A DNA stretch of 64,000 nt from an uncultured delta proteobacterium (GTDB taxonomy: Bacteria > Desulfobacterota > Binatia > UBA9968): assembly GCA_963771465.1 (NCBI GenBank), contig CAVYTU010000014.1, forward strand, positions 992,001 through 1,056,000, written 5' to 3'. This document shows positions 12,492-32,987 of this stretch, piece by piece (position 1 is the first letter of the stretch; each line of letters begins with the position of its first letter). Made by a program: the position numbers and the translations under genes. Below the pieces are notes generated by a model that worked only from the letters and a program-made list of their open reading frames with translations, was not told where the DNA came from and did not search any database.

Positions 12492-12512
12492 GGTCGCGCC
12501 TCCTTGCTCAGC

Positions 12513-13508: not shown

Positions 13509-13561
13509 TCTGTCCTCCGTGTTTCTCGATTCTATTATTCGTCGAGAGTCAAATCTCATGA

Positions 13562-14902
13562 TTACACAGGCCCGCCGGCTTGCAGCAACTGGGTCAACTG
13601 GCGGACGGTGGGCAGTTCTTCCAGGTGACTGACGCGGTCGACGATCTGGTCGGCCCGCGGTTGCGAGAATGCGCTGCTTACAGACTGCATGAATTTTTCG
13701 CGAACCGGCGGCCATTCGGTGAGATTGGCAATCGGTTGGAACGGTTCGGAGAATCTTTTGCCGTTTTTCAAAATCACTGTCAGTATTTCTTCATTGCTGT
13801 GACTGGTGCGTTGAATCAAGTTTTGTATGCGCGGATCTGCCAATCGTTCGTTGACAAAATCGTCCGGCTTGACCGTGCCGTGGACCAGAGTCATCGCCAG
13901 GCAGAAAGGCATGCTGAAGCGGCCTTCGTAGCCGCGGCTTGGCCGCGCGCGCACCAGCGGATAAGGGCGTAAATCGCATTCGATGGCGTCGACGTCGTCC
14001 GCGGTGATTTTTTCCCGTTGGCGCAAACGCAGCATGGCTTCCAGCCCGCTATGGGTTGCCGTGCAGGAGGCAAAGGGTTTGATCCGCAAACTGTGAGCGA
14101 GATCCCACTCGACGCCGAGGTTCTTACCGAGGGATTCGAGAATTTCATCACTCAAAGGCCCGACCGCTTCTAATAGCCCATAGCGGCCTTCGAGCACGGT
14201 GTCGTCGCTGGAAAATCCTGCCTGCGCGAGTAACGCCGTTGTCACGCCGGTAGCGGCGGCGTGGCCACAGCGAAACGGCTTGGCCATGGTGCCGCCGTCG
14301 CGGGTGAGCGCGCCGCAGGCGCCGGCCGACAGACCGATCGCCGCCAGTGTTTGCGTTGGATTTAACCGATAGATTCGGCTCGCCGAGCACGCCGCGGCAA
14401 TCGGGCCGAGTATTCCATTTGAATGCCAGCCGCGCGCGCCCGGGCCGATGCCGCTGGAGCGGGACGAGAAGATGCGATCCAAACTCGCGCGTACTTCACG
14501 GCCGATGATGAATGCTTCCAATGCTTGTCGCCCCGTGGACTCGGTGCTTTCCGCCGTCGCGATGGACGCAGCAAGGGTGTAAGTCGTCGAGTGATTTCTG
14601 TCGTCGTAATCGAGGCCATGCGCCAAGGTGCCGTTGAGAAACGCCGCGTCACGAGAGCTGGCTCTAGTTTCCATACCCCACACCGTGCAGTTGCCGGCGC
14701 CGACATTCGCCTTGGCAAATTTGTTCAAGCAATCGCCGATCTCTTGCTGGGTCGCCAAAACCGACACACCTAAACAGTCGAGTATCGCTAGCTTGGCATT
14801 GCTGATTACCGCCGTCGGCGCCTGCGTTAGCTGAAAATTTTGCGTGAACTCGGCGAGCTTTCGCGATAAACCGTCGATCGCTTTGTGCAAGGAATCGCTC
14901 AT
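13562..14902 (-). CDS. MmgE/PrpD family protein (paralog of 7896..9224)
   Basis: AILDCLG, HGLDYDD, GPGARGWH, KPFRCGH, RFSMPF. Confidence 0.85.
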   Translation of the reverse strand: MSDSLHKAIDGLSRKLAEFTQNFQLTQAPTAVISNAKLAILDCLGVSVLATQQEIGDCLNKFAKANVGAGNCTVWGMETRASSRDAAFLNGTLAHGLDYDDRNHSTTYTLAASIATAESTESTGRQALEAFIIGREVRASLDRIFSSRSSGIGPGARGWHSNGILGPIAAACSASRIYRLNPTQTLAAIGLSAGACGALTRDGGTMAKPFRCGHAAATGVTTALLAQAGFSSDDTVLEGRYGLLEAVGPLSDEILESLGKNLGVEWDLAHSLRIKPFASCTATHSGLEAMLRLRQREKITADDVDAIECDLRPYPLVRARPSRGYEGRFSMPFCLAMTLVHGTVKPDDFVNERLADPRIQNLIQRTSHSNEEILTVILKNGKRFSEPFQPIANLTEWPPVREKFMQSVSSAFSQPRADQIVDRVSHLEELPTVRQLTQLLQAGGPV

Positions 14903-14923
14903 GAATAACCTCGAAAAAATGTC

Positions 14924-15955
14924 TTAGCGCTTGCCGTAGAGCGCGTCGATATAACCGCTCTCGTCGAGCTTGCGAACGAAACGGTTGTCGATAAGATCGT
15001 CGACTTTGACGCGGCTCACATTGGCATTCAAGCTGCCCATCATGCGCTGGATATTGCGCAGCCCTTCGGCGCTACCGTAGGGTTTTCTCTCGAAGCCGAC
15101 GAGCAGATCCTGATAGCCCTCTTCCAGCGTGATTGGATCGTTGAGTTTCATTTGCTGCATCATGGTTTTCAGCACGATGTTTCGGTTGGTGGGAAGCGAA
15201 ATGAACGCTTGCGCTTCGAGCAAACCCTTGAGCATTGCCTCGACGACATCCGGCCGATCGCGCAGGTAGTTGCCGTTGACCACGAGACTGGTGTTGACGA
15301 ACGGAATCTTGGCGTGCTGGAGCTCGACGAGAACCGCCAGCCCCTTCTGTTTCATCCGGCGGCTGAGGAAGGGATCGAGCAGTGTGGCATCGATGTTACC
15401 GGCCTCGATGGCTTGCGCAAGAATCGTCTGATTGCCAATGGCGTTGATGCGAACATGATCGCGGTTGGCATCCAAGCCGAGATGTTCGAGGGCGAGTATC
15501 GCCGCCATCCAAGTCGTGCCGCCGATGTTGGTGACGCCGAAGCGTTTGCCGCGTAGATCTTTCGCTTCCTTAATCTCGGGACGGACGACGACATCGTAGG
15601 AAAGTCGATTGCTCGGGCTGGCGACGATTTTCAAATCCTGTCCGCCCGACACCGCCGAGAGCACCGGCGCGCCGCCGCTGCTGCCAAACTGCACATCGCC
15701 GGTGGCCATGGCGGTCATCTGCAAGTTACTGCTGCGCAAATAAATCGTCTCGACGTCGAGGCCATGTCTGGCGAAAAATCCTTGGCCCTTGGCAATCCAC
15801 AGCACCGCGGAACGGGTGTTTACCGCGGACTGACTCATGCGCAGTTTGGTCAACGACGGTTTGGCGGTTGTCGACGACGCGGCGGCGAAGCCATCGAAAG
15901 CGCCGAGCAACAGCAATAAAAGCGCGGATAGTTTTATAAATACACGTATGCTCAC
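14924..15955 (-). CDS. NMT1/SsuA/TauA-type ABC substrate-binding protein
   Basis: WIAKGQGFFARHGLDVE, DLRGKRFGVT, C-terminal D.RFVRKLDESGYID. Confidence 0.85.
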   Translation of the reverse strand: MSIRVFIKLSALLLLLLGAFDGFAAASSTTAKPSLTKLRMSQSAVNTRSAVLWIAKGQGFFARHGLDVETIYLRSSNLQMTAMATGDVQFGSSGGAPVLSAVSGGQDLKIVASPSNRLSYDVVVRPEIKEAKDLRGKRFGVTNIGGTTWMAAILALEHLGLDANRDHVRINAIGNQTILAQAIEAGNIDATLLDPFLSRRMKQKGLAVLVELQHAKIPFVNTSLVVNGNYLRDRPDVVEAMLKGLLEAQAFISLPTNRNIVLKTMMQQMKLNDPITLEEGYQDLLVGFERKPYGSAEGLRNIQRMMGSLNANVSRVKVDDLIDNRFVRKLDESGYIDALYGKR

Positions 15956-15997
15956 GAGAGCGCCTGTTCGAGACTGCCGAAGAGCCCGCCAATCGTC

Positions 15998-17140
15998 CTA
16001 CGCTACATTATAGAACTTGGCGCAGTTGTCCCAGATCAGCTTCTGTTTAATCTGGTTTGGAACTCCTTTGAACTGGCTCTCTATCACTTCCGGTGAGTGC
16101 GGCCAGGTGGAACCGCCATGAGGATAGTCGCTTGCCCACATATAATTGTCGGCCATGTCGAAGACTTCGGTACCAAGCACGCCAATGCGATCGTCTTGGA
16201 ATGTGATGTACAATTGCCGCCGAATGAGTTCACTGGGAAGCAAAGAGACGGTTTTACCATCCGGCACTTCCGAGCGAGCTCTTTGCAGGGTGCCGTCCAT
16301 TTTGCTGATGAACGGATGGAGCCAGGAGAGATCGTACTCAGCGAGCACAACGCGGAGCTTGGGAAATCGTTCCAACACGCCACCGAACACCAGGTCGGTG
16401 GTGAGTTTCAGCGGCTCGAGAATCGCGCGATTAACGGCGTTGCGGCCCTGTTGCACCGGAGTAATAACTTTAAGCCGCGCCGCCATGCGATCGCGGCCTT
16501 GGACGATGTTAACATGATAGTGAATCGGAAAATTCATGTCCTGAGCCAGCGTCCACAGTGGATCGAACTCTGGATCACAATAACTCATGCCTTCAGGCAA
16601 CGCCGACGGCAACACTACGCCCTTATGGCCGCGCTTGGCGCAGCGTTTCATTTCCTCTAAGGACCATTCGACATCGAGCGCAGAGAGCAAACCCAAAGCG
16701 AGTAAGCGCTTGGGTGCTACGGCGCAATAATCCAGCAGCCAATCGTTATAGGCGATGAGTCCAGCTTTTTGCAGCGGCGTTTCTTCGCCTTTGAGGCTAT
16801 AAAAATTGCGCGCCATGCTCGGATAGAGCACTTCCATTTTGACGCCGTCTAGATCCATATCTCCCAGGCGCGCATGGGCGTCCCACGGTCCGCGCCAATC
16901 TTCCCAAGTGAAATTCTCAATGACCTTGCGAATCGCGCCGCCGCTTTTGTCTTTGCCTGCAGTAAACGTCATTCCCACCGGGTCGGGCTCGTGGCCGTCG
17001 AAAACCATGTAGAGGCCTTTCTTTCCGGGCGGATCTTGGACAAAACGCGGCCCATGCTCGCGCAGATTCTTCGGGATTCGTTCCCAAGCTTCAGGTGGTT
17101 CGTTGACGTGGGAATCCGATGAGAAAAATGTTGGTTCCAC
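15998..17140 (-). CDS. Amidohydrolase_2 family protein
   Basis: SSDSHVNEP, IHYH, LAE, WASDYPH; GTG start after GGAGG. Confidence 0.85.
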   Translation of the reverse strand: MEPTFFSSDSHVNEPPEAWERIPKNLREHGPRFVQDPPGKKGLYMVFDGHEPDPVGMTFTAGKDKSGGAIRKVIENFTWEDWRGPWDAHARLGDMDLDGVKMEVLYPSMARNFYSLKGEETPLQKAGLIAYNDWLLDYCAVAPKRLLALGLLSALDVEWSLEEMKRCAKRGHKGVVLPSALPEGMSYCDPEFDPLWTLAQDMNFPIHYHVNIVQGRDRMAARLKVITPVQQGRNAVNRAILEPLKLTTDLVFGGVLERFPKLRVVLAEYDLSWLHPFISKMDGTLQRARSEVPDGKTVSLLPSELIRRQLYITFQDDRIGVLGTEVFDMADNYMWASDYPHGGSTWPHSPEVIESQFKGVPNQIKQKLIWDNCAKFYNVA

Positions 17141-17252
17141 TTGTTTACCTCCAGCGAGTTACTGACTTATACAATTCGTTAATTAAAATTTTCTGGTCAT
17201 TTTAATACTTGATGAATTTCTCAACGCACAATCGGTTATTCCACAAAAGTCG

Positions 17253-18305
17253 CTACCGGTACAAACGGTCGATAAATTGGCTCTCTTCTAGTTTGCGATA
17301 AATGCGCTCGTCGACGAGCTCTTCGGCTTTCACTTTGGTGACGCCCGGGTTGTAGCGCATTACCCGCTGAATATTTTTCAGTCCAGCCACGTCCGGGTAT
17401 GGCTTCTTGGCGATCAATTTGTCGAGATCCTGAAAGGTTTCCTTAGCGGTAATCGGGTCGGTGATTTTTAAGCGCTCGGCCAAAAACCTGAGCACAATAT
17501 CTCGGTTAGCAGGTTTATACAGAAACGCGGTGGATTCGATCATGACCTTTAAAACATTCTCGACGACATCCGGCTGCTGCTGCAGGTAACTGCGGGACAC
17601 CACTAGACCGGAGCTGGCGAACGGTAGTTTGGCGCTCGACAGCTCGGCCAGGACGCGAAATCCTTTTCGCTTGAGCTCTCTGGAGAGCGCGGGTTCGACT
17701 AAGATCGCGTCGACTCTGCCGGAATTAAGTGATTGGACAAGCACCGTTTGATCGCCGATGCCTTGCAGTCGAATGCGATCCCGCTCGGGACTGAGACCGA
17801 AATGCTCCAAACCTAAGATCGCGCCGATCCAAGTGGTGCCGCCGATGTTGGTAACGCCAAGGTCTCGGCCGCGCAACTCCTCAATGCTTTTTATTTCTGG
17901 TTTGGCGACGATGTCCCAATAAACACCCTGGCCGAAGGTGGCGACGATTTTCAGATCATGTCCCGCGGCCGCAGCGCTCAGTGTTGGCGCGCCGCCGGTA
18001 TGGCTTAGCTGCACTTCATTGGTGGTGAGCGCCATCATCTGAATGGTGCTGTTACGCACATAGACTGGCTCGAGATCGAGATTGTACTTCTTGAACAAAC
18101 CTTGGCTCGTGGCGATCCACAGGGGCGCGGCGGTGACGCCGACGTTAGATTGGCTCAAGCGAATCCTTGCCGCGGCGCCAAGATTCTGTGTCATGATTAT
18201 CGGTAGCAATGAAGCGATCAGGACCGCGATCCTGGCGAGTTTGTATCGGTGTCTCGACGAGAGGAGGCGAAGGCAAGTTGTATTCGGCCACAGTTGCGTT
18301 TTCAT
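17253..18305 (-). CDS. NMT1/SsuA/TauA-type ABC substrate-binding protein
   Basis: PLWIA..QGLFKKYNLD; GVTNIGGTTW is shared with 14924..15955. Confidence 0.85.
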   Translation of the reverse strand: MKTQLWPNTTCLRLLSSRHRYKLARIAVLIASLLPIIMTQNLGAAARIRLSQSNVGVTAAPLWIATSQGLFKKYNLDLEPVYVRNSTIQMMALTTNEVQLSHTGGAPTLSAAAAGHDLKIVATFGQGVYWDIVAKPEIKSIEELRGRDLGVTNIGGTTWIGAILGLEHFGLSPERDRIRLQGIGDQTVLVQSLNSGRVDAILVEPALSRELKRKGFRVLAELSSAKLPFASSGLVVSRSYLQQQPDVVENVLKVMIESTAFLYKPANRDIVLRFLAERLKITDPITAKETFQDLDKLIAKKPYPDVAGLKNIQRVMRYNPGVTKVKAEELVDERIYRKLEESQFIDRLYR

Positions 18306-18314
18306 AATCTCCCG

Positions 18315-19397
18315 TCAGCGCTTGCTGATGAACAGCCGGCGCTTGTATCCTTCCCATTCATTAAATTTCTTCTCCATTTCGTCCGGCGGGTAGCGACTTT
18401 CGATATAAACCTTTTTGAACTTTTGCTCTTGCGAACCGATGTCGCTGCGCGCCGAACTTAAACCGCCCTTTAAAACCGTCTGTTGTCCTTCTTTGGAGTG
18501 GAGAAAGTCGAGGAAGAGCAGCGCGGCGTGAGGATTAGGCGCTCTAACAACCATTCCCGAAGTGCCGGTGGTCGCGATCACGGGATCGATGGGGCGCCAC
18601 TCCACAGGCGCGCCTTTTTGCTTGGCGACGGCGATGTTCGAATTGAAAATCGTCGGTGACAAAGGCACCTCGCCAGAAGCCACGAGTTGCGCCAACGCCG
18701 CGCCGGAGATGTTCTGCACGTTTATTTCCTGCCCGGCAATTTTTTCGAGAAACTCACGGCCAAAAGTTTCCACCAGGGCGCCGATCCACTGAGTGCCGGT
18801 GGTTGTGCCCGCGATGGACATCTTGCCTTTCCATTTAGGATCGAGCAGATCCTTCATCGTCTTGGGCGCGTCGGCCGGCGGAATGATTTTGCTGTTGAAA
18901 CCCAAACTGATGTAAAGCTCGCGACTAGTCCAATGAAGATAACCATTCTTGCCTTTGAACTTGACGTGGTCGTCGTAGGGACCGAGCTCGGGAGAAAACA
19001 CTTCTTGAAATCCATTGGCAGCGACCAAGAGCGCCATATAGTCAGGACTGGTTTCGACCACGTCGGCGATGAAGCGGCCGGCCGCCATCTCATCGGTTAA
19101 ACGTTTGAGCAGCTCTTTGGAGTCGCTGCGCCAGACGTTGGTTTTGATGAACGGATATTTCTTACCAAACTCCTCGGACACGTGACCCGCCATCCAGGTG
19201 TTGGAGGTGTAAAAAGTTACCTGCCCTTCCTTCTTCGCGCCGTCGAGCAAAATTTGACCGCGATCTTTGCCTTGATAAAGCGCCAGCTCTGCGCCGGCGA
19301 GGGTTTTAGTTTGCGCCGCGTTCAGTGCTGCCAACGGCCAATGCGCGGCCGTTATGATGATCGCGAGTAGAATACCGTTGAGAGTTCTAAGCGTCAT
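18315..19397 (-). CDS. Extracellular solute-binding protein, AfuA-like
   Basis: Close paralog of 11..1090 (GEVPLSPTIF, KQKGAPV.WRP); start MTLRT after AGGAGG. Confidence 0.85.
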   Translation of the reverse strand: MTLRTLNGILLAIIITAAHWPLAALNAAQTKTLAGAELALYQGKDRGQILLDGAKKEGQVTFYTSNTWMAGHVSEEFGKKYPFIKTNVWRSDSKELLKRLTDEMAAGRFIADVVETSPDYMALLVAANGFQEVFSPELGPYDDHVKFKGKNGYLHWTSRELYISLGFNSKIIPPADAPKTMKDLLDPKWKGKMSIAGTTTGTQWIGALVETFGREFLEKIAGQEINVQNISGAALAQLVASGEVPLSPTIFNSNIAVAKQKGAPVEWRPIDPVIATTGTSGMVVRAPNPHAALLFLDFLHSKEGQQTVLKGGLSSARSDIGSQEQKFKKVYIESRYPPDEMEKKFNEWEGYKRRLFISKR

Positions 19398-19426
19398 TGA
19401 TAATTCCTCCTGGAGGCGACACGAGT

Positions 19427-20608
19427 TTAATCGAAGTAACCTGCTTTGTAGGCCCACAACCATAGATAGGCGATTTTTTCGTTGTGGAGCTCAGCATAGC
19501 CGACATGGCCATAACGTGGGATCAAGACGACATGAGCGCCGCGCGTGGCCGCGGCGTACTTGGCGCCCATAAACATCTCGCGCTTATTTTCCAGCGGCGC
19601 GCCGCCGTTGACCCAATGGCCTTTGTCGTTCTCGCCGGCGACGAGCAGCACGCGAATGGTTTTCAGCCAACTCGCGTCAGGTTCTTGTAGATGGTCGAAA
19701 TATTCTTCCCGGGGCAGGCCGGTACGCTTGGGATACTCTTCCAATATTCCCAGTGCCGCGTTGTGCTGATTGTCGCACAGACTGGTTTTCATCTGTGAAC
19801 GGAGCGGTGTGGCCAGCCGGATGTAGTCGTCGGCGCCGCCCCAGGGCGTCAGGTCTTCGGGGTCGACGTAACCCGAATTCTTGAACGAATCCGGAGAACG
19901 GCGCGAGACATGGTCAACCGGTTTCTCGCCATATTTTTCTGCGCTGGTCTGGTTACGCCACTCCAAGCGCCAACCGTCGGGGCCGCCGCTGCCGAAGCCG
20001 ACGATGCCGATCACTTTGGTTTTCTGAGAGAAGCGTGTCAGGTGCGCCGCCATCGGCCCGCCCGTCGAGTGACCGAAACCGATAATTTCGCGTCCGGCGA
20101 GATGTTGATCGGTGAGCAGGCCGGCGCCCTGAAGAATGACGTTGAAGGTACATTTGAGATTGCGATCGAGAATTTCCTCCCTCGGCAATTCTCGATCGAG
20201 CAGATAAATCGGCATGCGTTCGGCGACGGGAATATCCCAAATCCCGCCCGGCGGATAATGGCCGGGATAGGTGAGCGATAAAACTTTGAAGCCTTGGGCG
20301 GCGAGCACGCGCGCAAGCCCAGGCCGGCCATCGGGCGTGAAGTCCATGATCTTTTCGCTGGCGGCGCCGCCGTGAAAAAAAACGAAGCCGCGTATGCCGT
20401 CGAGCTCCCGCTCCGGCGCGTAAAGAGTGCCGTGCATGTCCCAGTCATAGCCGTTGCGCCGGTAGCGGGTAGTAACATCTTGGGTGCTGAAATTTCCAAC
20501 TGGATACGGCGGCGCAATGGCGAGCCAATCCTCCCAGCTGAGTTTCAAGAGTAACTGTTTTGAGTTAAGGCCGTTTAGATAGGTTTCGATGACTTCAGTG
20601 GCTGCCAT
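19427..20608 (-). CDS. Uncharacterised alpha/beta-hydrolase-fold protein
   Basis: FFHGG oxyanion loop, GHSTGG nucleophile elbow, GEND, RYGH. Confidence 0.7.
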   Translation of the reverse strand: MAATEVIETYLNGLNSKQLLLKLSWEDWLAIAPPYPVGNFSTQDVTTRYRRNGYDWDMHGTLYAPERELDGIRGFVFFHGGAASEKIMDFTPDGRPGLARVLAAQGFKVLSLTYPGHYPPGGIWDIPVAERMPIYLLDRELPREEILDRNLKCTFNVILQGAGLLTDQHLAGREIIGFGHSTGGPMAAHLTRFSQKTKVIGIVGFGSGGPDGWRLEWRNQTSAEKYGEKPVDHVSRRSPDSFKNSGYVDPEDLTPWGGADDYIRLATPLRSQMKTSLCDNQHNAALGILEEYPKRTGLPREEYFDHLQEPDASWLKTIRVLLVAGENDKGHWVNGGAPLENKREMFMGAKYAAATRGAHVVLIPRYGHVGYAELHNEKIAYLWLWAYKAGYFD

Positions 20609-20621
20609 AATTGCCTCTCGC

Positions 20622-21452
20622 TTAGGATTGACTAACGTAGTGGTCGAGATAGTGCTTGGCGATCTCACCTTTGGTGGCGAACCAAACTTCCGGAAAGCCC
20701 TTGGCGTAGCGGATACATTGTTCAAACACGCCGATGATGTTGGGTCGGCCGCCGATATGGGCGTGGACCAGACAATCGATGAGCTTGGGCGCGCCGGCTT
20801 GGCCTTCGGCGTAAAGACAATCGAAAGCCGCCTTGAAGCTTTCGAAGTAAACCGTCGGCGGATTTTTGTGCGTAAACAGCAGGCTCAAATCATTGGCATA
20901 GTCGAGCCGCGGCATGATGACCAGCGGCTTGCTATTGACTATGCGATGCTGCGGGATATCGGGGCCGGGCAAATCGCCAGTCCAGAAAATTCCTTCGTCA
21001 ACGAAATTCCTCAATGTGTAGTCGTTGATTCTATGCCCTGGGCTGACCCAACCGACCGGCCGCTTGCCGGTTACCGCTGCCAGGCTGTCGAGAGTTCGCC
21101 GGATGAGTGCTCGCTCCGAGTCGGCATCCAATGCAGATAGAGCCGTGTCATTGACCCAACCGTGACCGACGATTTCGTGTCCGCCCGCGTGAAGTTCTTT
21201 CAGCGCGTCGGGAAAGTCCTCGGCGATACGGCCGTTGGTGTCGATGGTGCCCTTGACGCGGTTGCGCGCCAAGACATCCATGATGCGCCAGATGCCGGCT
21301 TTACCGCCGTATTCACCGTATGCGAGCGATGCGTAGTCGGGTTTATCGCCGCCTTGACGGTATTGCGAATACTTTTCAAAGGCTTCAAACGCGACAAAAA
21401 AGCTGACGGCGATCTTGGCATCATTCGGCCATCGGATTGACGCAGGTCTCAT
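20622..21452 (-). CDS. Polysaccharide deacetylase (CE4), PuuE/allantoinase-like
   Basis: WPNDAKIAVS, EYGGKAGIWR, HEIVGHG, GWVSPG, HAHIGGRP. Confidence 0.85.
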   Translation of the reverse strand: MRPASIRWPNDAKIAVSFFVAFEAFEKYSQYRQGGDKPDYASLAYGEYGGKAGIWRIMDVLARNRVKGTIDTNGRIAEDFPDALKELHAGGHEIVGHGWVNDTALSALDADSERALIRRTLDSLAAVTGKRPVGWVSPGHRINDYTLRNFVDEGIFWTGDLPGPDIPQHRIVNSKPLVIMPRLDYANDLSLLFTHKNPPTVYFESFKAAFDCLYAEGQAGAPKLIDCLVHAHIGGRPNIIGVFEQCIRYAKGFPEVWFATKGEIAKHYLDHYVSQS

Positions 21453-21579: not shown

Positions 21580-21591
21580 CCTAAGAGCGTG

Positions 21592-21625
21592 AAAATAAAA
21601 AAGGGCTGTCCCGTGACATCCCTTT
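21592..21625 (-). terminator. Intrinsic terminator after the nuoF-like gene
   Basis: Minus strand AAAGGGATGTC-ACGG-GACAGCCCTTT followed by TTTATTTT. Confidence 0.75.
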
Positions 21626-21649
21626 GGAATCGATCGGCCTTTTGCCGAT

Positions 21650-22909
21650 TCAATTGACCGGACATTTGCCAGTCGTGAGATGGGCTTCGAAATCGGCTGG
21701 GAAGAGTTTGAGCGCGCTTTCGATTGGCGGACCGGGCATGGCGATCAAATTGCAAAAACCTTTACCTTTATTAAACGCGAGAATCTTGCCGAACTGTTCG
21801 AGGATCGGCTGTCCGCCCTGGCCTGATTGGACCTTTTTCATCATCATCGACAGCGCATTGGTTTCCATGCGGCAAGCCGGACACTGGCCGCAGGATTCCG
21901 CGGTGAAAAAGTCGGCGATGCGGAGAACTTCTTCGACAATGCACGTTCCTTGGCTGATGAGTTTGACGACGCCGCAGCCTAAAGCGGAACCTGCGTCGCG
22001 CATGGAGTTATGATCGAGTGGCGTGTCGATTTTATCCGGCGGCAAAAACGCCGACGACGGCGCGGCTGGCATAATCGCTTTGAGCGGCTTGCCGCTCTTA
22101 AGTCCGCCGCCGCATTCTTCGATTAAATACCGCAGCGGCGTGCCGAACGGCAGTTCGTAAACGCCCGGACGATTGACGTCGTCGTCGAGGGAAAAAATCA
22201 TCGTGCCGGGACTCTCAATCGTGCCGAATTGCCGGTACCACTCGGCGCCTTTGAGCAAGATCGGCGCGACGTTGGCAAGGGTTTCGACATTATTTACCGA
22301 GGTCGGTTTGCCAAACAGGCCGACCGTCACGGGGAACGGCGGTTTTTGCCGTGGCCACGGCTTGCGACCCTCAATCACTTCCAGCACCGCGGTGTCTTCA
22401 CCGGCGACATAATTATGCGGCGCAGAAATGATTTCTATATCGAGATTAAAATCGCTGCCGAGAACTTTTTCTCCCCAGTAAGCTGCGGCTTTTGCTTCAG
22501 CGAGCGCATCGGTAATGCTTTTGATGGCGACGTCGTATCTTGCGTTAATGTAAAGGTAAGCTTTATTTGCGCCGATGGCGTAGGCCGAAAGAATCGTGCC
22601 TTCAACTACTAAGTGCGGTAAGTTCTCTAGCAGCACGCGGTCTTTCTTGCTGCCGGGTTCGTCCTCGCCGCCATTCAAGACAAGATAGCGCGGCGTTTCC
22701 GCCGCTTCCCGGGTAAATTGCCATTTTTTTCCGGTTGGGAATCCCGCGCCGCCGCGGCCGCGCAGGCCGGCATCCGAGACGATTTTTACAATTTCTTCGG
22801 GCGCGCCTTTAATCGCTTTGGCGAGCGCATCGTAACCGCCGCGGGCGCGGTATTCCTTCAATCCCTCGTGCCCTTCAGGAACCGCGTGGGGGAAAAGGAT
22901 CCCTTCCAT
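21650..22909 (-). CDS. Stand-alone NuoF/HoxF-like FMN, [4Fe-4S] flavoprotein (NAD(P)H oxidoreductase)
   Basis: GLRGRGGAGFPTGKKW, EPG..KDR, GE.TA, NNVETLAN, SLBB-like VYELPFG, ESCGQCPAC...C. Confidence 0.9.
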   Translation of the reverse strand: MEGILFPHAVPEGHEGLKEYRARGGYDALAKAIKGAPEEIVKIVSDAGLRGRGGAGFPTGKKWQFTREAAETPRYLVLNGGEDEPGSKKDRVLLENLPHLVVEGTILSAYAIGANKAYLYINARYDVAIKSITDALAEAKAAAYWGEKVLGSDFNLDIEIISAPHNYVAGEDTAVLEVIEGRKPWPRQKPPFPVTVGLFGKPTSVNNVETLANVAPILLKGAEWYRQFGTIESPGTMIFSLDDDVNRPGVYELPFGTPLRYLIEECGGGLKSGKPLKAIMPAAPSSAFLPPDKIDTPLDHNSMRDAGSALGCGVVKLISQGTCIVEEVLRIADFFTAESCGQCPACRMETNALSMMMKKVQSGQGGQPILEQFGKILAFNKGKGFCNLIAMPGPPIESALKLFPADFEAHLTTGKCPVN

Positions 22910-22912
22910 GAA

Positions 22913-23236
22913 TTAGAAAACCCCCGTGTCGAGCAGTTGGTAGATCAGCTCCTTGAGCGATGAATCGATGGTGTCCAAACGTTTGACATGGGGTCCGCCG
23001 GCGAGGTGTTCGACGATCTCGTCGAGATCTTCCGGCTTCACGTGAGCGTACCAGTTCTTTTCCGGGTAGATCACGATGTTGGGGCCTTCCTGGCAGGCGC
23101 CGAAGCACATGTAGGATTTCACTTCGACATCGGTCAGCCCTTTGGCGGCAAGTTTTTCTTGCAGCGCCGCCATCAACGGCTCCGACCCACGCGCTTTACA
23201 ATCGATGTTCTGACATACGAGACAAGCTTGGCTCAC
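22913..23236 (-). CDS. Thioredoxin-like [2Fe-2S] ferredoxin (NuoE C-terminal domain-like)
   Basis: VCQNIDC..RGS ... CFGACQEGP..VIYP..WY. Confidence 0.88.
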   Translation of the reverse strand: MSQACLVCQNIDCKARGSEPLMAALQEKLAAKGLTDVEVKSYMCFGACQEGPNIVIYPEKNWYAHVKPEDLDEIVEHLAGGPHVKRLDTIDSSLKELIYQLLDTGVF

Positions 23237-23297
23237 GGTTTCTCCTTAAACGCTACATATTAGTCTCCATACTATATGCAACATATCTGCGCCGAGC

Positions 23298-24404
23298 TCA
23301 ATTCACCTGCATTTGAGACACCCAGTCTTTGCCTTTGATGATGTCGGCTAAAATCTGTTCGTCTTCGGGCGTCGGCAACGCTTCGAGCAAGTGTTGCTTG
23401 TAAGCCTCCGGCGACAGTGGCTCGCCGGTAACGCTGTGGTTCTTGCCGATATGCTCGCCGATGGAGCGGTTGAACTTCAAGTCGGGCGCTTTGAGTTTGG
23501 CTTGCCCTTCTGGAATGAGTTGGTTGAGCTGATCGATTAGTTTCTGCGATTCGGCCATGTAATGTTCACGAGCGAGATCATTGAGTCTTTCTTTCTGAGC
23601 TGGAACCTTGGCGTCATGTTCGTCATAGCGTCCCTTCAAACCCCAGGTGTAGGCCCAGTGGGCCGAGGAGGAATGATCGGTGCCAAACAGATCATAGGCG
23701 GTCGAAAGCCATTTATTAAAATACTTCTGCACGATTGGAATAGGAATCTTGCCGGCTCGCATGATCCGCGTCAGTCCGGTGTGACCGGTGAACATATGGA
23801 AAAATTCTTCCTTGAGCATCGCCGTCACGCTTTCAGCAAGCGGCGCAAACGCCGAGTGCGAGAGCATCGTTAGCTGGTATTTGCCGTCGCGGTCGACGAA
23901 CTCTGTATAGGTGAAAAAGTCGAGCCAGTTATTCACAGGTGCATTGAATGAGCCGAGCAAGCGGTCGCCGCGGAAAGCGCGGCGCTCTAACATTTTGCGC
24001 GCCTCGAGTTTTCCCGAATCGCCAAAATAATTCACCAGCAGATAACACATCTGCCAGCCGTGGCGCATTTCTTCGCTATTGACCCGGATCAACGCCTGGC
24101 GGTCATATTCCGTCGGCGCGGTGTCGAGCAGGTTTTTCTGCTGTTCGACTGACGCGAATTCCGTATCGCCTTGATAGACGATCAGGTTCATCAACGCATC
24201 GCGGATGGACTGATTGGGGATTTGGCTGACCCGTTGCCACTTTTGTTGCCCGGTGAAATCGCCGAACTCGATTTCCGGCGCATGAATCTCACCGAGTTTG
24301 GTCTCGAATTGGTAGTCGCCCAACAGAGTGGGATCGTAGCCGATATCTTTTTGCCACTGGCGGAAATAATCAACCCAGTCATCAAAAGTAGAAATCTTGA
24401 TCAT
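23298..24404 (-). CDS. BoxB/PaaA-like diiron (aryl-CoA epoxidase-like) protein, 368 aa
   Basis: QGDTEFASVEQQ, EEMRH, DRDGKYQL, EEFFH, DLFG, GLKGR; these follow the BoxB ligand pattern E, ExxH, D, ExxH. Confidence 0.82.
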   Translation of the reverse strand: MIKISTFDDWVDYFRQWQKDIGYDPTLLGDYQFETKLGEIHAPEIEFGDFTGQQKWQRVSQIPNQSIRDALMNLIVYQGDTEFASVEQQKNLLDTAPTEYDRQALIRVNSEEMRHGWQMCYLLVNYFGDSGKLEARKMLERRAFRGDRLLGSFNAPVNNWLDFFTYTEFVDRDGKYQLTMLSHSAFAPLAESVTAMLKEEFFHMFTGHTGLTRIMRAGKIPIPIVQKYFNKWLSTAYDLFGTDHSSSAHWAYTWGLKGRYDEHDAKVPAQKERLNDLAREHYMAESQKLIDQLNQLIPEGQAKLKAPDLKFNRSIGEHIGKNHSVTGEPLSPEAYKQHLLEALPTPEDEQILADIIKGKDWVSQMQVN

Positions 24405-24421
24405 AAGAAACCCTTTCGCTA

Positions 24422-24443
24422 AATTCGAACGATCGTTCGAATT
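24422..24443. promoter_or_regulatory. Perfect 22-bp palindromic operator, likely bound by a TetR/PaaR-type repressor
   Basis: AATTCGAACGATCGTTCGAATT lies immediately downstream of the -10 box of the boxB-like gene. Confidence 0.7.
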
Positions 24444-24444
24444 A

Positions 24445-24473
24445 TTTATAACCTTTTGGATTTCCGAAATCAA
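24445..24473 (-). promoter_or_regulatory. Sigma70-type promoter of the boxB-like operon
   Basis: TTGATT-N17-TATAAA on the minus strand. Confidence 0.6.
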
Positions 24474-24533: not shown

Positions 24534-26933
24534 TCAGCGATACATCTCCAAGATCTCGACCATGCCGAGTTGGCGAATCTGGTCGAACAGGTAGCGCTTA
24601 ATTTCGCCCACAGTGTCCATCTCGAGAACAATCCGCGCGGCGGTTTTAGCGGCCTGGTAACTGGTCGAGCGCAACGCCTTTTTGATCACCGGGATATAAA
24701 GCGAGCCCATGCTGAACTCTTCCAGTCCCATGCCCAAAAGCACCAGCGCGCAAAGGGGATCGGCGGCCATTTCACCGCACATGCCAACGCGTTTTCCTTC
24801 TCTCCTACCGGCTTCGATGGTGGAGTTCAACGCCGATAAAACCGCCGGATGAAGGGGTTCGTATAGACTGGCCACTTTGCGATTGCTGCGGTCGACCGCC
24901 AGTAAATATTGGATCAGGTCATTGGTCCCGATGCTGAGAAAGTCAACTTCGCGCAAAAAACGATCGGCCAATTGAACCGCCGAGGGAACTTCTACCATGA
25001 TCCCCAATTCCATTTGCCGGTCGAAAGGCGTGCCATCGCGAGTCAGCTCGTATTTAGCTTCACCGAGCAGCTCTTTTACCTTTTGAATTTCCTCGAGGCT
25101 GGAAATCATCGGCACGAGCATTCTGACTCGGCCTAAATCGCCGACCCGGAGAATCGCCCGCAACTGGGTTTTGAAAATCTCTTCGACCTCAAGGGAAATT
25201 CGAATGGAACGCCAGCCCAAGAAGGGGTTTGGCTCGGTGGCCACGCTGCGCATGTAGGTCGGATACTTGTCCGCACCGATATCCAGAGTGCGGATCGTCA
25301 CGGGTTTTTCGCCCATACCCTCAACAACGCGTTTGTACAGTGCGTACTGTTCCTCTTCGCTGGGAAAGTCGCGATGGGATAGGAACGGAATCTCGGTTCG
25401 GTAAAGGCCAATTCCCTGCGCTCCATGCAGATTGGCGAAGGCAACATCGCCTAACAGGCCGATATTGGCGTAGAGCGAAACGCGGTGGCCATCGGTGGTT
25501 TCCGCCGGCAAGTCTTTGAGCGCGCCCAACTCGCGGTTCAGGTCGGCATAATCGTGTTCTAACCGATCGTACTCGCGAATGACTTCGGGATTCGGATTCA
25601 CATGCACGCCGCCCGAATTGCCGTCGACGATCAACAGATCGCCTTGATGGACATTTTCCATCAAGCCTTCGACGGCGACCACGCTGGGAATTTCAAACGA
25701 TTTTGCCAGGATCGACGCATGCGAGGTCACGCCGCCGGTGGATAATACGATGCCTTTGAATTTGTCGCCTTCGAGCATGCTCAAATCCGCCGGCGATAGA
25801 TCCTGAGCGACCAAAACGGCGTCGTCGGGAATATCGTATTGCTGGTCGACGCCACCGGAAAGGTTTTCCAACAATCGCTGCGCGGCGTCTTTGACGTCGG
25901 TGCTGCGTTCGCGCAGATAGGGATCGTCGATCTTTGCAATCGAAGCCAAATAGCGTTCGAAGACGGCGCGCACCGCATACTCGGCGATAAAGCCTTCGCG
26001 CAAGATCTGGTGCTCGATCTGCTGAATGATCTTGGGGTCTTCAAGGATCAAACGGTAGACGTCGAAGATCGCTCCTTCCTCAGCGGAAATCATATGGCTC
26101 ATACGGTTTTTGACGACGGCGATTTGATCGATGCCGCGCTCTACCGCGCCGCGAAAGCGCTCTATTTCATGGCGCGGCTTGCGCGATTTTTTCTTTCGTA
26201 TCGCACTCAAGTCCATGCGCGGTTCGAGCACGAACGCCTTGCCGCGGCCAAAACCCGGCGATGCCGCCAGTCCGTCGAGCCGTCCATGCCAGTGTTGTTT
26301 GGTTTTTGCCGTGCGCCCGCGCCGACTGCCTTCGTAGGAACGCAGCTTGCGCATCGCTTGATTCATGCGTTTCTGAAACTCTTTTTGCTCCTCCTCTTTG
26401 TTTTTGAGCGTTTCGGCGAGGCGCGCTTGCACGATGATGCTCGCTGCCTGCGTCGAGATTGTCGTCAGCAGACGAATCTCATCGCGGGAAAATTCCCGCC
26501 GCCGGGAAGTTTGCACGACCAAAACTCCGAGGGGTTGTTTCTTTTCGATCAGTGGCACGCCGAGGAAAGAATGGAAATGCTCTTCGTGGGTTTCCGGAAA
26601 ATATTTGTATCGTGGATGTTTGAGCGCGTCGAGGACCATGACGGGTTTCATTCGTTCGAGCACCATACCCGTGAGCCCTTCGCCGGTCGCCATCGTGACT
26701 TTGCCGACAGACTCCGGATCGAGGCCCTTCGTGGCGCACAAAGTCAGGCGGTTTTTCTTTTGATCGAAGATGTAAAGCGAGCAAACTTCGGTCTCCATCC
26801 GTTCGGACACCGTGGCGACGATATTGTCGAGGGTCTCCTGCAAATCATGCGAATGGCTGATCAGCGTGCTGATGTCGGCCAGGATGCCGAGATGGGGATG
26901 AGTCGTGCGCGCGATTTTTCTTGTCTTAGCCAT
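24534..26933 (-). CDS. ptsP: GAF-domain phosphoenolpyruvate-protein phosphotransferase (enzyme I-Ntr)
   Basis: N-terminal GAF domain; TSHASILA phospho-His, GLYRTE, IRTLDIGADK, NPFLGWR, SIGTNDL, CGEMA. Confidence 0.93.
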   Translation of the reverse strand: MAKTRKIARTTHPHLGILADISTLISHSHDLQETLDNIVATVSERMETEVCSLYIFDQKKNRLTLCATKGLDPESVGKVTMATGEGLTGMVLERMKPVMVLDALKHPRYKYFPETHEEHFHSFLGVPLIEKKQPLGVLVVQTSRRREFSRDEIRLLTTISTQAASIIVQARLAETLKNKEEEQKEFQKRMNQAMRKLRSYEGSRRGRTAKTKQHWHGRLDGLAASPGFGRGKAFVLEPRMDLSAIRKKKSRKPRHEIERFRGAVERGIDQIAVVKNRMSHMISAEEGAIFDVYRLILEDPKIIQQIEHQILREGFIAEYAVRAVFERYLASIAKIDDPYLRERSTDVKDAAQRLLENLSGGVDQQYDIPDDAVLVAQDLSPADLSMLEGDKFKGIVLSTGGVTSHASILAKSFEIPSVVAVEGLMENVHQGDLLIVDGNSGGVHVNPNPEVIREYDRLEHDYADLNRELGALKDLPAETTDGHRVSLYANIGLLGDVAFANLHGAQGIGLYRTEIPFLSHRDFPSEEEQYALYKRVVEGMGEKPVTIRTLDIGADKYPTYMRSVATEPNPFLGWRSIRISLEVEEIFKTQLRAILRVGDLGRVRMLVPMISSLEEIQKVKELLGEAKYELTRDGTPFDRQMELGIMVEVPSAVQLADRFLREVDFLSIGTNDLIQYLLAVDRSNRKVASLYEPLHPAVLSALNSTIEAGRREGKRVGMCGEMAADPLCALVLLGMGLEEFSMGSLYIPVIKKALRSTSYQAAKTAARIVLEMDTVGEIKRYLFDQIRQLGMVEILEMYR

Positions 26934-29017: not shown

Positions 29018-30022
29018 TTATTTGCCGCCAAAAATCTCACCGAATAGTTTCTGGTAGTCGCCGAACTTATCGCCGATCTCGGGATCGTTAATATGGAGCT
29101 TCAGATTCTTCGGTACCCAAGCGGGGGCTAGGCCTCGCCGCGCCGGCTGCATGTTTTCACCCAAATAAATCCGCTGGCCTTCCTCGGAAATCAAAAAGTC
29201 CATAAATAACTTGGAGGCGTTGGGATGCGGCGCGTTACGGTTAATTCCGGCCGTTACAGTGTGCACGATGGCGGGTTCCAGGGCTACCCAGTCTAAGGGC
29301 GCCCCGGACTTCTTAGTACGCTCAACATTGTACGCGTACAGATCGATCGCCAGCGGAAGCTCTCCCGCCGCAACCAAATTGCCCAGCAGCGTGGTGCCTG
29401 AGCGCAAGCTGACATTTTGGCGCGCCAGACGCCGCATGTAATCCATGCCCTGTTTCTCGCCTTTGATTTTTATCAGGTTGACGAACCAGACATAGGCGGC
29501 GTCTTCGAGACCGAGCTTGTCTTTCCACTTTGGATTGAGCAGGTCGTCGTAGGAACGCGGCAGATCGCTCTTGGGCACCATTCGAGTGTTGTAAGCGGTC
29601 ACATGAAGAAACATGTAGAGCGCGGTATAAAAACCGTCCCGGTCCTTGAGCTCGTCGGGAATTTGTTTGCGTTCCGGCGAGTCGTATTTCAGCAGCAAGT
29701 TTTTTTTCTTAAAAATATCGATATACCAGTCGGTGGTTCGGAGGATGTCCGCCGAGTGCTTGCCGGCGCGGCTCTCGGTCTCGAAGCGCACTAAGAGCCG
29801 CTGGCTCTGAATGCGAAATTTCTTGGCTTGAATGAAGGGATACTTTTTCGTGAAGCCGCGATTGATATCCTCATCGATCTCGCTGGAGCCGCCGCCGTAC
29901 CAGTTGATTTCTCCCTCTTTCCTGGCGCCTTCGATAACGTCGGCGCTGGCCGCCTCGCTAGTGACCGTGCGCAGTAAGCAGATAAAAAGAGCGGCAAACG
30001 GGATGAAACGATTAATAGGCAT
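29018..30022 (-). CDS. Extracellular solute-binding protein, AfuA-like
   Basis: GARKEG, AYNTRMV, DLLNPKWK, APHPNA. Confidence 0.85.
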   Translation of the reverse strand: MPINRFIPFAALFICLLRTVTSEAASADVIEGARKEGEINWYGGGSSEIDEDINRGFTKKYPFIQAKKFRIQSQRLLVRFETESRAGKHSADILRTTDWYIDIFKKKNLLLKYDSPERKQIPDELKDRDGFYTALYMFLHVTAYNTRMVPKSDLPRSYDDLLNPKWKDKLGLEDAAYVWFVNLIKIKGEKQGMDYMRRLARQNVSLRSGTTLLGNLVAAGELPLAIDLYAYNVERTKKSGAPLDWVALEPAIVHTVTAGINRNAPHPNASKLFMDFLISEEGQRIYLGENMQPARRGLAPAWVPKNLKLHINDPEIGDKFGDYQKLFGEIFGGK

Positions 30023-30088
30023 AGACTGACGTCTCCATGATTTTAAAATTTGACGGCATTCGATTTGTACTCTTATACCGGGAGTGAC

Positions 30089-31093
30089 TTACTTTTTGCC
30101 AAACACCTCAGCGAACAGTTTCTGATACTCGCCAACTTTGTCGCCGATGTCGGGATCGTTTACGTGTAATTTAACGTTTTTCGGCAGCCATGGCGCGCTG
30201 ATGCCGCGACGAGTCGGCTGCATGTTTTGGCTCTGATAAATGCGCTGGCCATCTTCCGAAAGCAAAAAATCCATAAACAGTTTGGCCGCGTTGGGGTGCG
30301 GCGCGTTCTTGTTAATGCCCCCGGCGATGGTGTGGACGATCATCGGATCGAAGGCGACCCAGTCGAGCGGCGCGCCGGCTTTCTTTAGCCGCTCGATATC
30401 ATCGGTGTAGAGATCGATGGCGAATGGAATTTCGCCGGCGGCGACCAAGTTGGTAAGTAAACTCGTGCTGGCGCGTAAACTCACGTCTTGGCGCGCTAGC
30501 CGGCGCATGTATTCGATGCCCGGTTTCTCGCCTTTCATCTTGAGCACGTTGACGAACCAGACATAGGCCGCGTCCTCGAGACCGAGCTTGCCTTTCCACT
30601 TGGGATCGAGCAGGTCGTCGTAAGAGCGCGGCAACTCGTTCTTGGGCACCATGCGAGTGTTGTAGGCGAGCGCATGCACTGCCAGATAGAGCGAGGTGTA
30701 GAAGCCGTCCCGGTCCTTCATTTCGTCAGGGATATTTTTTCGCTCCGGCGGATCATATTGGAGTAGCAAGCCTTTTTTCTTGAAGATATCGATATACCAA
30801 TCGGTGGTGCGGACAATGTCGGCGGTGTGTTTGCCGGCGCGGCTCTCGGTTTCGAAACGCACCAGAAGCCGCTGACTTTGTACCCGGGTTTTTCTTGCTT
30901 GGACGAATGGGTATTTCTTCATAAAGCCGCGGTTGATCAGTTCGTCGACCTCGGCTGAACCGCCGCCCATCCAATCCATCGCGCCTTCTTTTTTCGCCCC
31001 TTCTATAAGATCAACGCTGGCGGCGAAACTGGTAGCCGCGCTCGACAAACAAAGCGCCATTGCAGCAAGTAAGAGGTAACGGCGAAACGACAT
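30089..31093 (-). CDS. Extracellular solute-binding protein, AfuA-like (recent tandem duplicate of the previous gene)
   Basis: Same length (334 aa) and long identical blocks such as QSQRLLVRFETESRAGKH and LGLEDAAYVWFVN. Confidence 0.85.
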   Translation of the reverse strand: MSFRRYLLLAAMALCLSSAATSFAASVDLIEGAKKEGAMDWMGGGSAEVDELINRGFMKKYPFVQARKTRVQSQRLLVRFETESRAGKHTADIVRTTDWYIDIFKKKGLLLQYDPPERKNIPDEMKDRDGFYTSLYLAVHALAYNTRMVPKNELPRSYDDLLDPKWKGKLGLEDAAYVWFVNVLKMKGEKPGIEYMRRLARQDVSLRASTSLLTNLVAAGEIPFAIDLYTDDIERLKKAGAPLDWVAFDPMIVHTIAGGINKNAPHPNAAKLFMDFLLSEDGQRIYQSQNMQPTRRGISAPWLPKNVKLHVNDPDIGDKVGEYQKLFAEVFGKK

Positions 31094-31274
31094 AAAGATA
31101 AGCCTCCTTAATGACCGATTAGATCCGGCTAAAACATAGCACAGACAATGGTGGCGATTCCAAATGAAACTTGTGTTGTCAATGTTCTTTTGAAGAGGTA
31201 AACCAACGCTTGACCGGTTGAACAGTCTTCAATAACGTCGTCGGCAGGATTCACGCAAGGACAAAGGAGCTGTC

Positions 31275-32963: not shown

Positions 32964-32987
32964 CCCGGATTCTTCGTCGTGCAAAGG

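Follow-up and report, generated by a model that had tools for sequence, protein, structure and literature searches.

A conserved operon joining a compact BoxB-family diiron protein to a ferredoxin and a NuoF-type flavoprotein in Binatia-like bacteria

The 64,000-nucleotide stretch of DNA analyzed here, referred to throughout as the window, derives from an uncultured delta proteobacterium (GenBank assembly GCA_963771465.1, contig CAVYTU010000014.1, positions 992,001 to 1,056,000) and carries on its minus strand three co-oriented genes whose products, of 368, 107, and 419 amino acids (aa), are a compact diiron protein of the BoxB family, a stand-alone thioredoxin-like [2Fe-2S] ferredoxin, and a NuoF-type flavoprotein, respectively. 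This trio is a real and conserved feature, relevant to aromatic catabolism in soil and to diiron enzymology, and it is proposed to be a repressor-controlled operon for a three-component NADH- and O2-dependent aryl-CoA oxygenase. According to this proposal, the compact BoxB would epoxidize the ring of benzoyl-CoA, or of a very close analogue; the flavoprotein would take hydride from NAD(P)H onto flavin mononucleotide (FMN) and release single electrons to a [4Fe-4S] cluster; and the ferredoxin would ferry those electrons to the diiron center, such that the ferredoxin and flavoprotein together would fill the role of the absent BoxA. The resulting epoxide would then be opened and oxidized by enzymes encoded elsewhere, namely crotonases, an aldehyde dehydrogenase, and a PaaFGHJ-like β-oxidation set. 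Residues, fold, operons from other phyla, and genome content make it quite probable that the diiron protein, a member of a compact branch of the BoxB family, acts as a ring epoxidase of the benzoyl-CoA type. Should that be the case, the invariance of the operon, the competence of the cofactor sites, and the absence of any alternative partner make it fairly likely that the flavoprotein and ferredoxin were recruited to supply it with electrons from NADH, while the two propositions taken jointly are evenly poised between true and false. Within this scheme the identity of the substrate, the route and direction taken by the electrons, and the contacts formed between the components are all inferred.

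On sequence evidence, the three genes are one conserved transcription unit, served by a single predicted promoter, operator, and terminator, and the elements of this unit are located in the window as follows:

24445..24473, minus strand: promoter, with -35 TTGATT (24473-24468), a 17-nt spacer, and -10 TATAAA (24450-24445), read by eye
24422..24443, no strand assigned: operator, the perfect 22-bp palindrome AATTCGAACGATCGTTCGAATT, starting 2 nt past the -10
24411..24416, minus strand: ribosome-binding site AAAGGG, 6 nt ahead of the ATG (consensus of 17 loci, GAAAGGA)
23298..24404, minus strand: compact BoxB-family diiron protein of the NuoF-linked ("type II") clade, 368 aa, assigned from family profiles, ligands, and fold
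22913..23236, minus strand: stand-alone thioredoxin-like [2Fe-2S] ferredoxin, 107 aa, GTG start, equivalent to the C-terminal domain of NuoE only
21650..22909, minus strand: NuoF-type flavoprotein, 419 aa, with an FMN/NADH site, one [4Fe-4S] site, and no extra terminal domains
21589..21625, minus strand: intrinsic terminator, a hairpin (21625-21600) followed by a U-run

The original prediction, which was made from the letters of the window and a list of its open reading frames (ORFs), had described the trio and its spacing correctly: the genes lie on the same strand and are separated by gaps of exactly 61 and 3 nt. Initiation of the diiron gene at its ATG yields the protein of 368 aa, while the stop-to-stop ORF beginning with the TTG at 24473 would yield 391 aa. 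A promoter, operator, and intrinsic terminator belonging to the trio had also been proposed, and these elements are upheld by direct reading of the sequence, by an alignment of 17 related upstream regions, and by folding. Specifically, the -35 retains its TTG almost without variation across the alignment, a TATA-like -10 is kept, and the core columns of the operator are invariant; the -35, the -10, the palindrome, and the ribosome-binding site are the sole conserved blocks in 17 upstream regions that are otherwise unalignable. The two 11-nt arms of the palindrome are 100% complementary, and its 18-bp core occurs a single time in the 6.9-Mb source genome (19 contigs, 99.4% complete). A sigma-70 consensus scan reported no site at the diiron-gene promoter because the -10 hexamer ends in A, and the terminator was missed by a consensus scan because its stem contains one mismatch; the hairpin is predicted to fold with a minimum free energy of -25.7 kcal/mol (z -2.2 relative to shuffled sequences). 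Each of the three genes is partly covered by near-identical short contigs from four soil RNA libraries. The flanking genes are covered equally well in the best metatranscriptome run (28 of 30 bins), DNA carry-over is possible, and no listed contig spans a gene junction with 31 letters on each side, for which reasons these contigs do not amount to proof of expression or of co-transcription.

Linkage of the three genes was surveyed in two directions. A scan of species-representative genomes returned at least 594 relatives of the diiron protein, from which 80 loci were kept, 30 of them close (at least 71% identity) and 50 distant (64% identity or less). All three genes are present in the same order at 28 of the 30 close loci, and the remaining two loci end at contig edges. 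The reverse test comprised 80 metagenome loci seeded by the NuoF-like protein (76-100% identity): the ferredoxin gene is found at each of the 67 loci with at least 340 nt of upstream sequence, the diiron gene at each of the 63 with at least 700 nt, and 55 of the 76 complete loci have a ferredoxin-NuoF gap of exactly 3 nt. The diiron protein and the NuoF-like protein are each encoded by 39 of 41 related genomes, a set that includes the source genome and one unpublished genome (G260), and the diiron protein occurs in 4 of 251 sampled genomes of the same phylum. Depositors have labeled the close loci variously as Binatia, "delta proteobacterium," Eisenbacteria, and other groups, and the group is designated here as Binatia-like. 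Chance adjacency was considered as an explanation for the trio and is ruled out by the linkage counts. In one genome of the same genus (G275:C8:88816-89918), the type II diiron gene is represented by three collinear pieces of 78-90% identity beside an intact NuoF-like gene, owing either to a frameshift in the gene or to a fault in the assembly.

The BoxB-like character ascribed to the diiron protein at the outset is borne out, and the protein is a relative of BoxB rather than of PaaA by profile scores, by sequence match to solved structures, and by fold. It belongs to superfamily PF05138 (43.7 bits; cut-off 28.5), reaches just 43.4 bits against the PaaA model (cut-off 280), and has as its top match among solved structures BoxB itself (3PER sequence, E 1e-51). 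Consistent with these results, the ten best Foldseek matches to its AlphaFold2 model (pLDDT 91.1) are all BoxB chains, with TMq values of 0.86-0.89, as compared to ~0.5 for PaaA. The alignment covers BoxB from end to end, and the ~100 fewer residues of the compact protein correspond to four absent insertions, with no domain missing. The iron ligands of BoxB, given in an excerpt of PMC5489048 as Glu120, Glu150, His153, Asp211, Glu240, and His243, align to the identical residues E82, E112, H115, D171, E200, and H203, all six of which are invariant in 36 sequences. The same excerpt lists the residues that orient benzoyl-CoA (Gln116, Thr119, Ser123, Phe193, Phe203/206, and Thr210), the Gln being hydrogen-bonded to the substrate (PMC5489048); of these seven substrate-shell residues five, Gln116, Thr119, Ser123, Phe193, and Phe203, are retained. 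Members of the family are annotated in their source records as either "benzoyl-CoA 2,3-epoxidase subunit B" or "phenylacetic acid catabolic protein." The source genome additionally encodes three orphan PaaA/PaaC-like proteins (C15:554657-555445, C14:164959-165681, and C17:176171-176887; loci L105, L106, and L194) of 238-262 aa, which score 79-82 bits against PF05138 and lack Paa partners. One of these orphan genes lies beside a UDG-superfamily gene, one beside electron transfer flavoprotein genes, and one beside NamZ, and in the tree described below their products form a distant outgroup of the BoxB-like family.

The second and third proteins of the trio carry what would be required of an NADH-dependent electron donor. 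The ferredoxin had been termed NuoE-like, a description that holds for its thioredoxin-like [2Fe-2S] domain and fails for NuoE as a whole, the profile scores placing the protein nearer to stand-alone ferredoxins. Specifically, its match to PF01257 (40 bits; cut-off 24.8) is limited to profile positions 68-144 of 145, and its match to the NuoE model TIGR01958 (38.8 bits; cut-off 142.4) to positions 73-147 of 148; models of stand-alone ferredoxins outscore NuoE, yet all curated NCBIfam cut-offs are missed. All 28 sequences compared retain C8, C13, C44, and C48, the C-terminal helix is conserved, and the AlphaFold2 model (pLDDT 93.4) presents a thioredoxin-like β-α-β...β-β-α arrangement followed by a helix at residues 92-103. 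A second thioredoxin-like ferredoxin gene is located elsewhere in the source genome (C14:468536-468853; L193:6536-6853), and its product is 66% identical and has the same C-terminal helix; the neighbors of this gene are a glyoxalase-family gene, a GNAT gene, and genes for an extracytoplasmic function (ECF) sigma/anti-sigma pair. The flavoprotein is recognized by PF01512 (146 bits) and PF10589 (58 bits), as well as by PF10531 (SLBB), also above cut-off, and scores 417.3 bits against the nuoF_fam model TIGR01959, short of the equivalog cut-off of 558.65. Its GRGGAGF motif and residues C340, C343, C346, and C386 are shared by all 25 sequences compared, and its best solved relatives, NfnB, HydB, and Nqo1, are about equally distant from it (334-351 bits). 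A complex prediction for the trio, in which each protein had an alignment of its own and the diiron protein was the partner, returned a score of 0.00 and a mark of 0.32, values that speak neither for nor against binding.

Alternative partners for the diiron protein and the flavoprotein are absent from the source genome as far as it was searched. It had been stated that the window holds no other nuo genes, no hydrogenase or formate dehydrogenase (FDH) catalytic subunit, and no boxA, boxC, or paaBCDE. In support of this statement, no nuo neighbors of the flavoprotein gene were found among the window ORFs covered by the Pfam scan (9298-37700), the other NuoF homologues of the genome lie outside the window, and genome-wide searches found no NiFe hydrogenase, no match at all to PaaB, and only sub-threshold matches to BoxA (best 30 bits; cut-off 459), BoxC (72 bits; cut-off 712), and PaaE (48 bits; cut-off 421); this support is bounded in that the Pfam scan was confined to the ORFs named and other nuo subunits were not searched for. 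A bona fide nuoF (628.9 bits) is present on the same contig at a distance of 245 kb, and a third NuoF homologue, fused to NuoE, is encoded beside a NuoG-like ferredoxin and a molybdopterin oxidoreductase, neighbors that provide this NuoE-NuoF fusion with an FDH-type partner of its own. The genome check suggested along with the original prediction, for a separate nuo operon and for boxA and paaE, thus yielded a distinct nuoF and neither of the latter two genes genome-wide. The alternative voiced at the same time, that the flavoprotein is a hydrogenase or FDH diaphorase with its partner encoded elsewhere, loses ground in view of the FDH-type partner possessed by the other NuoF paralogue and the failure to find a NiFe hydrogenase. 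An aldehyde:ferredoxin-oxidoreductase-family gene is situated ~1 kb from the genes for the molybdopterin oxidoreductase, the NuoG-like ferredoxin, and the NuoE-NuoF fusion (C16:81009-88464; L104), and this cluster may encode an NAD-linked FDH.

As to the substrate, the source genome encodes a benzoate-CoA ligase (800 bits; cut-off 375) whose gene adjoins a five-gene ABC uptake system, as well as a second ligase (594 bits) whose gene adjoins one for an aldehyde dehydrogenase (ALDH). Because both a benzoate-CoA ligase and a transporter are present, benzoyl-CoA is very probably made by this organism. No true BoxB, no BcrB (subunit B of class-I benzoyl-CoA reductase), and no ring hydrolase Oah scored above cut-off genome-wide, and the compact BoxB is the sole recognizable candidate for dearomatizing benzoyl-CoA in the source genome. 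Candidates for the downstream enzymes are scattered: a crotonase gene on contig C17 lies beside an aldehyde dehydrogenase gene and encodes an ortholog (61% identity) of the crotonase of the operons from other phyla, and contig C13 contains a TetR-PaaF-PaaG-3HCDH-thiolase cluster (PaaF/G/H/J-like), where 3HCDH denotes 3-hydroxyacyl-CoA dehydrogenase. The TetR_C_24 protein of the C13 cluster, which is the sole homologue in the source genome of the operon-encoded TetR of other phyla (39% identity), was considered as the cognate repressor of the diiron operon and was rejected, its intergenic region being without a related palindrome.

Investigation of the wider family provides a second line of evidence concerning the reaction catalyzed. 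In a maximum-likelihood tree of 36 rows, chosen from more than 120 available sequences, the NuoF-linked diiron proteins form the type II clade (support 99/96), and its sister group (94/87) consists of the protein of an Acidobacteriota locus (L046, genome G296) and a second paralogue, "type I" (~59% identity), that is present in many genomes of the same order. True BoxB proteins have long branches and a placement without resolution, and for this reason no direction of change, whether compact from long or the reverse, is claimed. At L046 a ferredoxin gene directly follows the diiron gene, encoding a protein of 45% identity with the same C-terminal helix, and genome G296 also encodes a stand-alone NuoF-like protein (54% identity) on another contig. 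A search for relatives of solved structure among the genes around the stand-alone NuoF-like gene of the Sulfopaludibacter genome returned none.

The distant loci, outside the order, place the type I diiron gene among genes for acyl-CoA enzymes. A crotonase gene lies upstream on the same strand at 35 of the 50, a 3HCDH gene downstream at 21, a TetR gene is found at 21, an ArsC/Spx-like gene at ~18, and a UDG-superfamily gene at 25; ALDH genes occur at 9 of the 80 searched loci, all 9 being within the distant set. An operon from Gemmatimonadales has the order operator-TetR-crotonase-ALDH-thiolase-crotonase-diiron-GDPD-3HCDH. Additionally, the α subunit of 4-hydroxybenzoyl-CoA reductase, an enzyme whose product is benzoyl-CoA, is encoded 1-3 kb downstream at 8 of the 50 distant loci, the match to 1RM6_A being full-length at 810 bits, as compared to 308 bits for the next family. 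The source genome, for its part, contains ~27 paralogues of the large subunit of the xanthine-dehydrogenase family, each no more than 38% identical to the diiron-adjacent 4-hydroxybenzoyl-CoA reductase, and automated counts of "4-hydroxybenzoyl-CoA reductase" may therefore be inflated in genomes of this kind. UDG-superfamily genes are also embedded within type I acyl-CoA/diiron operons (L038:4531-5061, L047:4551-5060, and L055:4154-4702), in which rhodanese, ArsC/Spx-like, macro-domain, and NUDIX genes are likewise recurrent.

The operator connects these operons with that of the source lineage. Allowing up to three mismatches, its core precedes the diiron gene at 24 of the 30 close loci, while at 20 of the 50 distant loci it lies close to the beginning of the operon, for the most part beside a TetR gene. 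A perfect copy is present at two Gemmatimonadales loci; by our own arithmetic, fewer than one chance match is expected across all 80 loci. The occurrence of the operator core in different phyla argues that the same type of regulator controls the diiron gene in several of them and, to judge from the DNA, the ferredoxin and flavoprotein genes of the source lineage have been placed under this cross-phyla type of regulator.

Several observations weigh against a tight coupling of the ferredoxin and flavoprotein to the diiron protein. Among the distant loci, a NuoF-like gene is found at none of the 50 and a ferredoxin gene at only one (L046); the best NuoF match in five carrier genomes from other phyla is 41% identical, with BoxA above cut-off in none of the five; and, of 201 Acidobacteriota genomes, 11 encode the diiron protein (the unpublished G320 among them) and 3 encode a NuoF-like protein with an identity of 50% or more (the unpublished G448 among them), the two co-occurring in the seed genome G296 only. 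The linkage for which a survey across genomes had been recommended is consequently invariant within one order, with possibly one Acidobacteriota genome besides, and is not general to the diiron family. Furthermore, in at least three relatives from one genus of the same order, examined at loci L201 (6686-7009), L202, and L203 (genomes G293, G292, and G287), the adjacent type II diiron gene has been deleted, leaving a progressively decaying 3' remnant of its last 56 codons that in one case lies directly behind the promoter and operator. The operator is retained at one of these three loci, while the ferredoxin and NuoF-like genes are intact, with dN/dS values of 0.04-0.19 at dS 0.4-0.6. In two further genomes of this genus, the NuoF-like gene and the only diiron match are located on separate contigs. 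Because the pair has been kept under purifying selection after the deletion, the module is not strictly dependent upon the adjacent diiron gene, and the deletion lineage weakens the case for its recruitment as a reductase. All five of these genomes retain a type I BoxB-like paralogue elsewhere, and it is possible that in the deletion genomes the module serves this paralogue in trans or has an independent role.

One explanation of these data is that the ferredoxin and flavoprotein constitute an NADH:ferredoxin (or NADH:acceptor) oxidoreductase of general function, which shares a transcript with the diiron gene in this lineage but serves another acceptor or several, such as the second BoxB-like paralogue or other iron enzymes, and is not dedicated to reducing the adjacent protein. 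Such an explanation is unlikely overall, though it has appreciable points in its favor: the survival of the pair, with dN/dS of 0.04-0.19, in three genomes from which the diiron gene has been deleted; the 66%-identical ferredoxin paralogue encoded beside unrelated genes; and the absence of the module from most diiron family members of other phyla. It fits less well with an adjacency that is invariant wherever contigs allow it to be seen (28 of 30 and 63 of 63 loci) or with the position of the pair under the promoter and operator of a specialized regulon, the latter being single-copy in the genome. Moreover, every deletion genome keeps a BoxB-like paralogue from the clade nearest to the ferredoxin-linked proteins, so that the same observations are accounted for equally by a module that serves a BoxB-type enzyme in trans. 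The initial proposal of an aryl-CoA epoxidase supplied by a complex-I-type reductase is thus preserved with respect to the BoxB relative and the conserved unit, but must be narrowed given that the pairing is that of one order only and that the module can outlive the diiron gene.

A separate set of observations runs counter to the assignment of the diiron protein as a benzoyl-CoA epoxidase. Against the BoxB model TIGR03225 it scores 240.9 bits, under the curated cut-off of 499.1, while two true BoxB representatives (P0152 and P0156, length-matched) pass with 672 and 908 bits; nine other relatives score 150-249 bits, eight of them being short forms of 351-383 aa. Throughout the compact family Phe206 is replaced by Tyr and Thr210 by Val or Ile, and the NuoF-linked clade has Phe at positions 201 and 205, which are occupied by small residues in the other clade; these changes in the pocket suggest that the substrate may differ from that of BoxB. 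In addition, the presumed downstream enzymes are unlinked to the operon and no copy of the operator is found near them. The protein could accordingly act on another CoA thioester or carry out a different chemistry, whether upon a substituted benzoyl-CoA, by hydroxylation or desaturation of a non-aromatic acyl-CoA, or by deoxygenation of an epoxide, a deoxygenase activity of BoxB being mentioned as a proposal in the abstract of PMC5489048. Irrespective of the reductase, the route would then be something other than a benzoyl-CoA epoxide pathway. We regard this as improbable. The sub-threshold score, Tyr at Phe206, Val at Thr210, and the clade-specific Phe201 and Phe205 would all be in keeping with it, as would the fact that the crotonase, 3HCDH, and thiolase of neighboring genes are also generic β-oxidation enzymes and the finding of BoxC in 0 of 41 relatives, a search in which the control also matched in none. 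Opposed to it are the retention of five of the seven ring-orienting residues, including the substrate-bonding Gln, the presence of 4-hydroxybenzoyl-CoA reductase in the same cluster at eight loci, and the orphan benzoate-CoA ligase and transporter of the source genome. Scavenging of O2 or peroxide is a known function of ferritin-like diiron proteins that receive electrons from NADH-linked iron-sulfur flavoproteins, and this precedent is the one point in favor of regarding the trio as a rubrerythrin-type, NADH-dependent scavenger of O2 or peroxide with no organic substrate. That possibility is very slight, being at variance with a specific homology and fold that extend to the benzoyl-CoA-holding residues of BoxB and with the embedding of the family in acyl-CoA operons under a TetR-type operator. 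A benzoyl-CoA-type ring epoxidase supplied by a recruited NuoF-type reductase is accordingly the reading preferred here, at the strengths given at the outset.

The operon is flanked upstream by a gene for a GAF-domain PtsP-like enzyme I (24534-26933, minus strand) and downstream by a polysaccharide-deacetylase-family gene. The PtsP-like gene holds the same upstream position at most close loci, as counted at 48 of the 80 metagenome loci, a position that is kept although the diiron operon carries its own promoter. Further afield, the window is unusually dense in genes for periplasmic solute-binding proteins (SBP_bac and NMT1/THI5-like) at 9298-21452 and 29018-35309; ten such genes occur in the scanned stretch, together with a TctC-family receptor gene, and they are interleaved with Amidohydro_2 genes.

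Looking beyond the source lineage, it is conceivable, if somewhat doubtful, that compact BoxB proteins define an unrecognized aerobic benzoyl-CoA pathway spread across Binatia-like bacteria, Acidobacteriota, Gemmatimonadota, Chloroflexota, and others, one governed by a single deeply conserved TetR-type operator and in which unrelated proteins would stand in for both classical partners, small crotonases for BoxC and, in one order, the NuoF-type flavoprotein and ferredoxin for BoxA. Lignin and plant phenolics give rise to aromatic acids that make up a major part of the carbon entering soil, where the phyla that encode compact BoxB are abundant and mostly uncultured. Were compact BoxB a working epoxidase, aerobic CoA-dependent ring cleavage in soil would be far commoner than the BoxA, BoxC, and full-length BoxB markers imply, and "boxB" annotations that lack partners would be right as to the enzyme and wrong as to the pathway. 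The operator shared across phyla offers a route to the regulator, to its inducer, and hence to the substrate. An excerpt of a preprint on Binatota reports benzoyl-CoA pathway genes to be abundant in metagenome-assembled genomes of Binatota and Acidobacteriota. In a literature search whose scope excluded supplements, no description of the NuoF-diiron pairing or of a compact BoxB family was found, and the literature retrieved under BoxB-like or BoxB homolog names concerns the RNA element BoxB or protein cages.

Comparison with known systems places the trio near several of them. It shares with PaaABC(D)E the superfamily PF05138 and a presumed scheme in which the ring of a CoA ester is epoxidized and the product then passes through crotonase, dehydrogenase, and thiolase reactions, and a PaaF/G/H/J-like cluster that includes a TetR_C_24 regulator is present in the source genome; the trio differs in its PaaA score (43.4 against 280), in a TMq of ~0.5, and in that neither PaaB nor PaaE was found. 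The operon ferredoxin resembles the stand-alone ferredoxins of Clostridium and Azotobacter (NF041612/NF041613) in size, in its C-x4-C...C-x3-C pattern, and in its predicted thioredoxin-like fold, but reaches 50 bits against a cut-off of 150 and has an extra helix (92-103) in common with the L046 ferredoxin. BoxAB (3PER, 3PM5, 3Q1G) is similar in its full-length ferritin-like diiron fold, its six ligands, and most of its substrate-shell residues, and, like BoxAB, the compact family sits among CoA-ester enzymes with an aldehyde dehydrogenase. In contrast to BoxAB, the compact protein is ~100 residues shorter, is encoded in a genome without BoxA or BoxC matches above cut-off, and has as its proposed reductase a NuoF-type flavoprotein and thioredoxin-like ferredoxin instead of BoxA, which is an FNR-type iron-sulfur flavoprotein. 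With the NuoE/NuoF modules of other enzymes (Nqo1/2, HydB/HydC, HoxF/E, FdsB/G, and NfnB) the trio has in common an FMN/NADH motif, an SLBB domain, and the cysteines of an N3-type [4Fe-4S] cluster. It departs from these modules in that its ferredoxin is without the N-terminal helical domain of NuoE, and in that the adjacent partner, rather than a NuoG-like protein or a hydrogenase or FDH catalytic subunit, is an O2-activating diiron protein. To our knowledge no other NuoE/NuoF-type module is paired with such a protein. If the reading preferred here is correct, the trio would constitute a new combination for supplying electrons to a diiron oxygenase, would point to wider uses of the NADH-input module of complex I, and would provide the first instance of a NuoF-type reductase feeding an O2-activating diiron oxygenase.

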